Shown here in pieces: positions 6,001-9,000 of a stretch of 21,752 bases of DNA. Each line of letters opens with the position of its first letter. The stretch's first letter is position 1. The stretch lies in IMG/VR virus record IMGVR_UViG_2529292985_000022; one strand, 5' to 3'. This DNA is from a virus (taxonomy: Duplodnaviria > Heunggongvirae > Uroviricota > Caudoviricetes). Made by a program: the position numbers.

Positions 6001-9000
6001 GATTTGGCCGCCGCCTCAGCCTGTATGTGAACACGGCAGCGGAAGCCATCCGGGCGCTGTCGTTACAGGTGCCGGGCTTTCGCCGTCAGATGAACGAAGG
6101 CTGGTACCAGATACGTATTGCCGGTTATGACACGGCACCGGAGGCGGTGTACGCCCGTCTTCACGAACAGCTGGGTGAGGGAACGGTCATCCATATTGTG
6201 CCGCGACTGGCCGGGGCCGGAAAGGGTGGACTGCAGATTGTGTTGGGGGCGGCAGCCATCGTGGGCTCTTTCTTCACTGCCGGGGCATCAATGGCGTTAT
6301 GGGGTTCAGCCCTGGCAGCCGGTGGTTTTTCTGCCACCACGATGCTGTTTTCACTTGGAGCCAGCATGATTCTGGGCGGTGTGGCCCAGATGCTGGCCCC
6401 GAAGGCAAAAACACCGGATTACCGCGCAACGGATAACGGCAGACAGAACACGTACTTTTCCTCGCTGGATAACATGATTGCCCAGGGGAACCCGATGCCG
6501 GTGCCTTACGGGGAAATGCTGGTTGGCTCCCGCCGTATATCCCAGGACATCAGCACCCGTGATGAAGGCGGGGGCGGAACGGTCGTGGTTATCGGGCGAC
6601 AGGGATAAAACATAAAAAAATCCCGCAGTGATCGCGGAGCTGCGGGGACAGACAAATGAAGATCAATGTTAAGGAGTTGTTTTTGTTACTCGGGCAAAAA
6701 AACACTAACGCAGCGAAATTATAAGCGCCACAGTCAGTGTGTGAAAATGTGAAGATATTCAGAAATTTTATTCCGTCATGACGCAGGCACCCGGTGAGGT
6801 GCCTGTTGTTTTTGTGAGTGAACAATTATCACGGTAAGAGGTGATGTAATGGGCAAAGGTGGCGGCAGGGCGCACACACCGCGTGAGGCGAAAGACAATA
6901 TCAAATCCACGCAGATGATGAGCGTGATTGATGCGATTGGTGAGGGACCGATAGAAGGCCCGGTGAAAGGCCTGCAGAGTATTCTGGTGAACAAAACCCC
7001 GCTGACGGACACGGACGGTAATCCCGTGATACACGGTGTGACCGCGGTCTGGCGTGCCGGGGAGCAGGAGCAGACACCACCGGAAGGCTTTGAGTCCTCC
7101 GGCTCTGAAACCGGACTGGGCGTGGAAGTGACGAAGGCAAAACCGGTGACGCGCACCATTACGTCCGCGAACATTGACCGCCTGCGGGTTACCTTCGGGG
7201 TGCAGTCACTGGTGCAGACCACGTCAAAGGGCGACCGTAATCCTTCCTCTGTCCGGATTCTGATTCAGTTACAGCGTAATGGCCGCTGGGTGACGGAAAA
7301 GGACGTCACCATTAACGGCAAGACCACCTCACAGTTCCTGGCCTCGGTGATTCTGGATAATCTGCCTCCCCGGCCCTTTAACATCCGGATGGTCAGGGAG
7401 ACGGCGGACAGCACCACGGACCAGCTGCAGAATAAGACGCTGTGGTCGTCATACACCGAAATCATCGATGTGAAACAGTGCTACCCGAACACGGCCATTG
7501 TGGGGCTGCAGGTGGATGCGGAGCAGTTCGGCGGCCAGCAGATGACGGTGAACTACCATATCCGCGGTCGCATCATCCAGGTGCCGTCAAACTATGACCC
7601 GGAAAAACGCACGTACAGTGGTATCTGGGACGGCAGTCTGAAACCGGCATACAGCAACAACCCGGCCTGGTGCCTGTGGGACATGCTGACTCACCCGCGC
7701 TACGGCATGGGAAAACGTCTGGGGGCGGCGGATGTGGACAAGTGGGCGCTGTATGCCATCGGGCAGTACTGCGACCAGACGGTCCCGGATGGTTTCGGGG
7801 GGACCGAGCCGCGGATGACCTTTAATGCGTACCTGGCACAACAGCGTAAGGCGTGGGACGTTCTCAGTGATTTCTGCTCTGCGATGCGCTGTATGCCGGT
7901 ATGGAACGGTCAGACGCTGACGTTCGTTCAGGACCGCCCGTCGGATGTGGTGTGGCCGTACACCAACAGCGATGTGGTGGTGGATGATAACGGCGTGGGA
8001 TTCCGCTACAGCTTCAGTGCCCTGAAGGACCGGCACACGGCGGTGGAGGTGAATTACACCGACCCGCAGAACGGCTGGCAGACCTCCACGGAACTGGTGG
8101 AAGACCCGGAAGCCATACTGCGCTACGGACGCAACCTGCTGAAGATGGATGCGTTTGGCTGTACCTGCCGCGGTCAGGCTCACCGTGCAGGTCTGTGAGT
8201 GATAAAGACCGGACTGCTGGAAACGCAGACGGTGGACTTCACGCTCGGGTCACAGGGGCTGCGTCACACACCGGGTGACATTATTGAAATCTGTGATAAC
8301 GACTATGCCGGGACTATGACCGGCGGACGTGTCCTGTCCATTGATGCTGCCACCCGCACCCTGACGCTGGACCGTGAGGTTACCCTGCCGGAGACAGGTA
8401 CATCGGCGGTGAACCTGATTAACGGCAGCGGTAAGCCGGTGAGTGTGGACATCACCGCACACCCCGCGCCGGACCGGATACAGGTCAGTACCCTGCCTGA
8501 TGGTGTGGAGACATACGGGGTGTGGGGACTCTCCCTGCCGTCACTGCGCCGTCGCCTGTTCCGCTGTGTCTCCGTCCGGGAAAACACGGACGGCACCTTT
8601 GCCATCACGGCGGTGCAGCACGTACCGGAAAAAGAAGCCATCGTGGATAACGGTGCCCGCTTTGAGCCGCAGTCAGGCTCCCTGAACAGCGTCATCCCAC
8701 CGGCAGTGCAGCACCTGACGGTGGAGGTGAGCGCAGCTGACGGCCAGTATCTGGCACAGGCGAAATGGGACACGCCGCGGGTGGTGAAGGGGGTGCGCTT
8801 CAGTCTGCGACTGACCAGCGGAAGCGGAGAAGACAGCCGTCTGGTGACCACCGCTATCACTGCGGATACAGAGCATCGTTTCAGTGGCCTGCCGCTCGGG
8901 GAATACACCCTGACAGTCAGGGCAATTAACAGTTATGGCCAGCAGGGCGAACCGGCCACCACCACCTTCCGGATTAACGCGCCAGCAAAACCCGCCACCA

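Follow-up and report, generated by a model that had tools for sequence, protein, structure and literature searches.

The E. coli genomes and phage records that we retrieved annotate the lambda-type tail tip and host specificity gene J as a single CDS, and the solved structures show its product as a single chain. Among phages, 161 records contain at least 80% of J in one piece, and the J genes of Stx-converting and other lambdoid elements (e.g., Stx1a_EH182, Stx2a_1447 and HEB3762708.1, hereafter P0021) are uninterrupted and annotated as one host specificity protein. Two further kinds of described system are relevant to a J gene that contains an internal stop codon. Pseudogenes of cryptic prophages in Shigella and E. 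coli combine point inactivation with IS insertions nearby, while A1 of phage Qbeta is made by programmed read-through at a conserved UGA, and the phage requires this extended product.

Here, we analyze a J gene with an in-frame TGA in a lambdoid prophage of Shigella dysenteriae. The gene resembles lambda J in its domain order, its length class and its GQAHRAGLW(L/V)IKT motif, which includes the position of Trp450; however, it differs from lambda J in having TGA at the Trp450 codon. Its nearest relatives among phage records are long-tailed Stx-converting lambdoid phages, with 95-96% nucleotide identity across the whole of J, and its C-terminal receptor-binding region is unlike that of some relatives. 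With Qbeta A1 it shares a UGA that tRNA-Trp can misread, but this TGA is limited to one clone, lies in the middle of a domain and lacks a conserved context. By contrast, it is a typical case of the cryptic prophage pseudogenes.

The DNA studied, referred to as the window, is a stretch of 21,752 nucleotides that was identified by an exact protein match as the entire contig AERM01000156.1 of assembly GCA_000193895.2. This assembly is S. dysenteriae CDC 74-1112 in a published strain table (PMC6397287). J occupies positions 6849..10322 (+) and has 1157 codons with one internal stop. In the window sequence, bases 8190..8204 read GGT CTG TGA GTG ATA, and the TGA at 8196..8198 (+) is in frame. It had been noticed in a sequence-only reading of this DNA that two J ORFs share a frame and have only this TGA between them, and both the ORF list and the translation confirm this: ORFs 6849..8198 (449 aa) and 8199..10322 (707 aa) lie in one frame with TGA as the sole separator, and codon 450 is the sole internal stop in the joined translation. 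The same reading gave the upstream product correctly as 449 aa, whereas full-length J, put at ~1156 aa, in fact has 1157 codons.

Six Pfam families score above the curated thresholds on the joined translation and follow one another as they do in J, i.e., FNIII-A_GpJ, Phage-tail_3, Ig_J, Ig_J_second, Phage_Tail_Tip and Ig_GpJ_C. Phage-tail_3 covers residues 331-498 of joined J, and the stop at codon 450, therefore, cuts this domain. The N-terminal fragment (6849..8198, +; 449 aa, EFW49493.1) accordingly ends within Phage-tail_3, and the remaining 707 codons (8199..10322, +) are still open and have no start signal of their own. In GenBank, the second piece is EFW49494.1 (696 aa, called from 8232), and each of the two entries is named "Phage tail fiber protein". 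The surrounding genes are in the order tape measure, M, L, K, I, J, lom and stf, as they are in E. coli cM8a and E. coli O157:H16. Lambda-type J is a single uninterrupted frame, and here that frame is broken by the internal TGA at codon 450. Because of this TGA, the J locus is a pseudogene and not a functional member of the tail tip protein J family, and the 449-aa N-terminal fragment is the only J product expected in quantity. Two further codons differ from those of the relatives. Codon 440 (8166-8168) encodes Cys in place of Ser in lambda, cM8a and P0021, and codon 455 (8211-8213) encodes Gly in place of Glu in the same three; Gly is also found at this position in the related E. coli prophage L002.

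Several lines of evidence identify the codon that TGA replaced. First, E. coli cM8a, which has the closest copy of J among 5,426 complete E. coli genomes (98.3% identity over 601 nt), reads CTG TGG GTG at the site where the window reads CTG TGA GTG. Second, the intact E. coli J protein P0021 (1157 aa) is 97% identical, aligns without gaps and has Trp at position 450. Both ORFs flanking the TGA align over their full length and without gaps to this intact protein; statistics of chance do not apply to a difference of one base, and it is this gapless colinearity of both ORFs with an intact J that counts. Third, residues 271-606 align to the lambda gpJ structures 8iyk and 9e7m with an E value of about 1e-181. 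Residues 441-459 of lambda J (PDB 8iyk_J) are GQAHRAGLWLIKTELLETQ, in agreement with the lambda sequence that the earlier reading had given at this site, and lambda J in the tail-tip structures 8iyk and 9e7m shows HRAGLWLIKTELLE, Trp included. Three much more distant J-like proteins of solved structure retain this Trp as well, in GRWILKT (9l9p), GQWALLT (the F2 pyocin fibre, 25vf) and GHWALIS (23gd). Fourth, the codon is TGG in 120/120 IMG/VR viral contigs that match the motif HRAGL-x-[LV]IK; these contigs were drawn with the TGR version of the DNA pattern, which gave at least 120 matches, and the codons were counted in Python. Because Trp or TGG is present in all homologues examined, the change is TGG to TGA by a G-to-A transition at position 8198. 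Thus, the comparison with J of related prophages that had been proposed at the outset yielded uninterrupted TGG copies (e.g., cM8a and P0021), and the earlier claim of a TGG-to-TGA change at a conserved tryptophan is borne out by these copies, by the viral contigs and by the solved structures. On the aligned sequences, Trp450 is a widely conserved tryptophan and TGG the ancestral codon.

A difference of a single base in a draft assembly from 2011 raises the question of whether the true genome has TGG and the TGA is an error of sequencing or assembly, as the sequence-only reading had also considered. However, the identical 449-aa product is also encoded in GCA_001017215.1 and GCA_049894525.1, whose contigs share 100% identity with the window over 10.7 kb and 10.1 kb, respectively, the IS66 junction described below included. 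These three assemblies were deposited separately and represent either distinct isolates or one strain that was resequenced; either way, a one-off read error is excluded. Moreover, the change is a substitution and not an error in homopolymer length. We, therefore, consider an error extremely unlikely, and the TGA is an inherited feature of this lineage.

Beyond these assemblies, the allele appears to be rare. In a collection of 15 billion proteins, the exact 449-aa product was present on 3 contigs only, all of which are 100% identical to the window over 10.1-18.2 kb. A degenerate pattern for HRAGL-TGA-xIK(T) had 0 matches in IMG/VR viral contigs and 0 matches in GTDB species-representative genomes. 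It had 1 match in metagenomes, on a contig (L127, 1270 nt) that resembles neither the window nor J; we rejected this match as due to chance. A 45-mer centered on the TGA was found in none of the 5,426 complete E. coli genomes or the phage collection, a search of low power in which the control with TGG found 2 genomes only. Together, these searches indicate that the TGA allele is private to a single clone and does not mark a conserved recoding site.

The position of the TGA also bears on whether J is here divided into two genes. The codon directly 3' of the stop is GTG, forming TGAGTG, and in the output of one gene caller a 707-aa ORF starts at this GTG. Conceivably, ribosomes could stop at UGA and re-initiate at the adjoining GUG, and the two polypeptides could together form a working tail tip. 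However, this GTG is nothing more than the Val451 codon of the ancestral gene. The Shine-Dalgarno duplex for this codon at 8199 has an energy of −3.2 kcal/mol, which is the median of internal J codons (mean −3.13 kcal/mol) and no better than these, whereas the real J start has −7.1 kcal/mol and true starts in the operon have −6 to −9.5 kcal/mol. Nor is any homologue divided at this site: E. coli genomes and phages carry J as one CDS, and the structures contain it as one chain. The break itself falls in mid Phage-tail_3. A gene boundary is marked by a start signal belonging to the second ORF and by a break between domains, and neither is found at the J TGA. Because the stop lies within Phage-tail_3 (331-498), the TGA at 8196..8198 marks the boundary of neither a domain nor a gene. 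The genuine gene boundary with its own start signals, which the sequence-only reading had named as the finding that would overturn it, is thus contradicted by the stop inside a Pfam domain, the single CDSs of the homologues and the average Shine-Dalgarno score at GTG, and we assign a working two-polypeptide J a probability close to nil.

Unusually weak RF2 activity is a property of the K-12 allele, and other strains, therefore, probably read through less than K-12. In this J gene, UGA replaces a Trp codon and the 707 downstream codons are intact; near-cognate decoding by tRNA-Trp would insert the original Trp, could yield traces of full-length J and might let the gene keep some function. Of the stop codons of E. 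coli, UGA is the leakiest, and its read-through depends on competition between Trp-tRNA-Trp and RF2; in a reporter in K-12 BW25113, UGA read-through was ~2% at 37 °C and ~4% at 25 °C (PMC10570021). The base after the stop modulates this: +4A and +4C favour read-through and +4U opposes it, with +4A linked to misreading by tRNA-Trp and +4C the weakest context (PMC5289835). The +4 base after the J TGA is G, i.e., neither of the two favourable bases. The window has no match to any Rfam family, SECIS included, and the 91 nt around the J stop are no more prone to fold than shuffled sequence (z = 0.06), so that there is no unusual structure 3' of the stop. A SECIS element or another recoding RNA was ruled out on the basis of the zero Rfam matches and the ordinary fold.

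Programmed recoding is characterized by a stop that is conserved in diverged homologues and by a stimulatory context or a downstream RNA structure. J genes with TGA were found neither in IMG/VR nor in GTDB representatives nor in metagenomes, and the +4 G, the z score and the lack of an Rfam match speak against a stimulatory context or structure in the window. Further observations weigh against a leaky stop that preserves function. The allele is limited to one clone and missing from at least 120 other J genes, the bulk of the product would still be a truncated hub fragment, and the intact downstream ORF is accounted for by a recent lesion. In addition, the start of the tape measure gene upstream has been lost, and tails could not form anyway. 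Hence, of the earlier suggestion of low-level UGA read-through, the part that stands is that it is chemically conceivable (PMC10570021); no sequence evidence favours it, and because the tail operon has a second lesion, the issue is moot. In chemical terms, read-through could give traces of full-length J in which Trp450 is restored, at most at the percent level. If read-through occurs, it would be accidental, with the truncated fragment outnumbering full-length J. Nothing in the sequence suggests programmed or useful read-through, and it is very unlikely that a leaky stop lets J keep some function.

The second lesion is in the tape measure gene. The sequence-only reading had described a decaying prophage with IS66 next to this gene, and the element in fact cuts into it. 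Positions 1..1026 (-) are the end of an IS66-family element with a TnpB_IS66 Pfam match, and the element meets the tape measure gene at a point 8 codons into its reading frame. The window begins inside IS66, and the draft contigs all end at or within this element; contig L004, which starts at the IS end, contains a full IS66 with three ORFs. In E. coli O157:H16 (NZ_CP062876.1), the intact tape measure gene is located at 13976..17218 with its ATG at 13976, and homology to it begins at window position 1027, which corresponds to 14001, i.e., 25 nt past the ATG. At the 5' end of the gene, E. coli O157:H16 has MATLRELIIKISANS and the window has DDFPVTTLKISANS. Thus, what is left of the gene (1027..4244, +) lacks the start codon, the first 8 codons and the ribosome-binding site because the IS66 element is in their place. 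The deposited tape measure call starts at CTG 984, in sequence derived from the IS; the first in-frame start codon of the standard type is ATG 1083. Contig L004 and the G/T chaperone region of the E. coli O157:H16 prophage have nothing in common.

Apart from these two lesions, the tail genes are well preserved. M, L, K and I (4237..6608, +) are open and full length, with the lengths of their E. coli O157:H16 homologues and no internal stops, and lom and stf are also open and full length. The tail module, therefore, appears to be lightly damaged only, with M, L, K, I, lom and stf intact. In the region 11054-13499, the side tail fibre gene stf encodes a product of 519 aa with collagen-like Gly-rich repeats, which is longer than its counterpart in E. 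coli O157:H16 (347 aa). After stf come a Gp38-like gene and a DUF4376 fragment of 70 aa, as against 202 aa in E. coli O157:H16, which suggests more truncation at the fibre end of the prophage.

Beyond the prophage, the chromosomal flank with yecD, aspS, nudB, yebC and ruvC has ~98.2-98.5% identity to E. coli. The isochorismatase-family gene yecD is split into 14705-15040 and 16466-16753 by an IS110-family element whose transposase gene lies at 15079-16275 (-; NCBIfam "IS110 family RNA-guided transposase"). Directly after ruvC is an IS1 transposase remnant (20853-21284), and an IS2 transposase fragment (21259-21681) abuts this remnant and continues to the contig end. In total, four IS families (IS66, IS110, IS1 and IS2) are present in 21.7 kb, and this IS load is typical of IS-driven decay in Shigella. 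Related prophages have lesions of their own. In the E. coli O157:H16 prophage (NZ_CP062876.1; 4528-10985 and 23314-25929), the terminase gene has an internal stop, the portal gene has a frameshift and IS66 lies between J and lom, and in the E. coli prophage L002 (1955-4394), J is frameshifted and truncated by IS66.

How long ago J was inactivated can be approached from the two parts of the gene. Measured against E. coli cM8a, codons 1-449 and codons 451-1030 have the same dN/dS of 0.083; these values come from the comparison with cM8a only, as a downstream value against E. coli O157:H16 is invalid because an indel shifts the ungapped alignment. Because dN/dS is 0.083 on either side of the stop, J was apparently under purifying selection until recently. 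There is no second lesion downstream of the J stop, and the 707 codons are still open. The J lesion would be recent because these codons are open and share their history of selection with the upstream part. The equal dN/dS and the open downstream part fit a recent mutation, and ongoing use of the downstream part is not required to explain them.

Altogether, these findings support a model in which a spontaneous G-to-A transition converted TGG (Trp450) to TGA in the lambdoid prophage J gene of one S. dysenteriae clone. Translation would halt after 449 residues, inside the hub-forming Phage-tail_3 domain, and the Ig-like domains, the central fibre and the receptor-binding domain at the C terminus would be missing from truncated J. 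The prophage would have been free of selection for tail function: in this IS-rich region, the tape measure gene is also truncated at its 5' end by IS66. The J lesion would have been tolerated and inherited. From these observations, we infer that J has lost its function and that its mutation was neutral. A different outcome would be that the 449-aa fragment, or trace full-length J made by read-through or by re-initiation at GUG, is kept for a benefit to the Shigella host. If so, poisoned tail-tip complexes could, for example, block the assembly of superinfecting lambdoid phages. We give hardly any credence to this idea. As a whole, the account of a recent, clone-specific nonsense pseudogene in an IS-damaged lambdoid prophage of S. 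dysenteriae CDC 74-1112 is very probably correct.

For annotation, EFW49493.1 and EFW49494.1 are to be regarded as two pieces of one J pseudogene, and the prophage is to be scored as defective on the basis of two lesions in its tail operon, the J stop and the truncated tape measure gene. A UGA at which misreading restores Trp would be usable as a natural context for read-through reporters, with no gain over existing reporters. For the biology of the organism, the finding is an ordinary one of a known kind, i.e., one more case of prophage decay in IS-rich S. dysenteriae.
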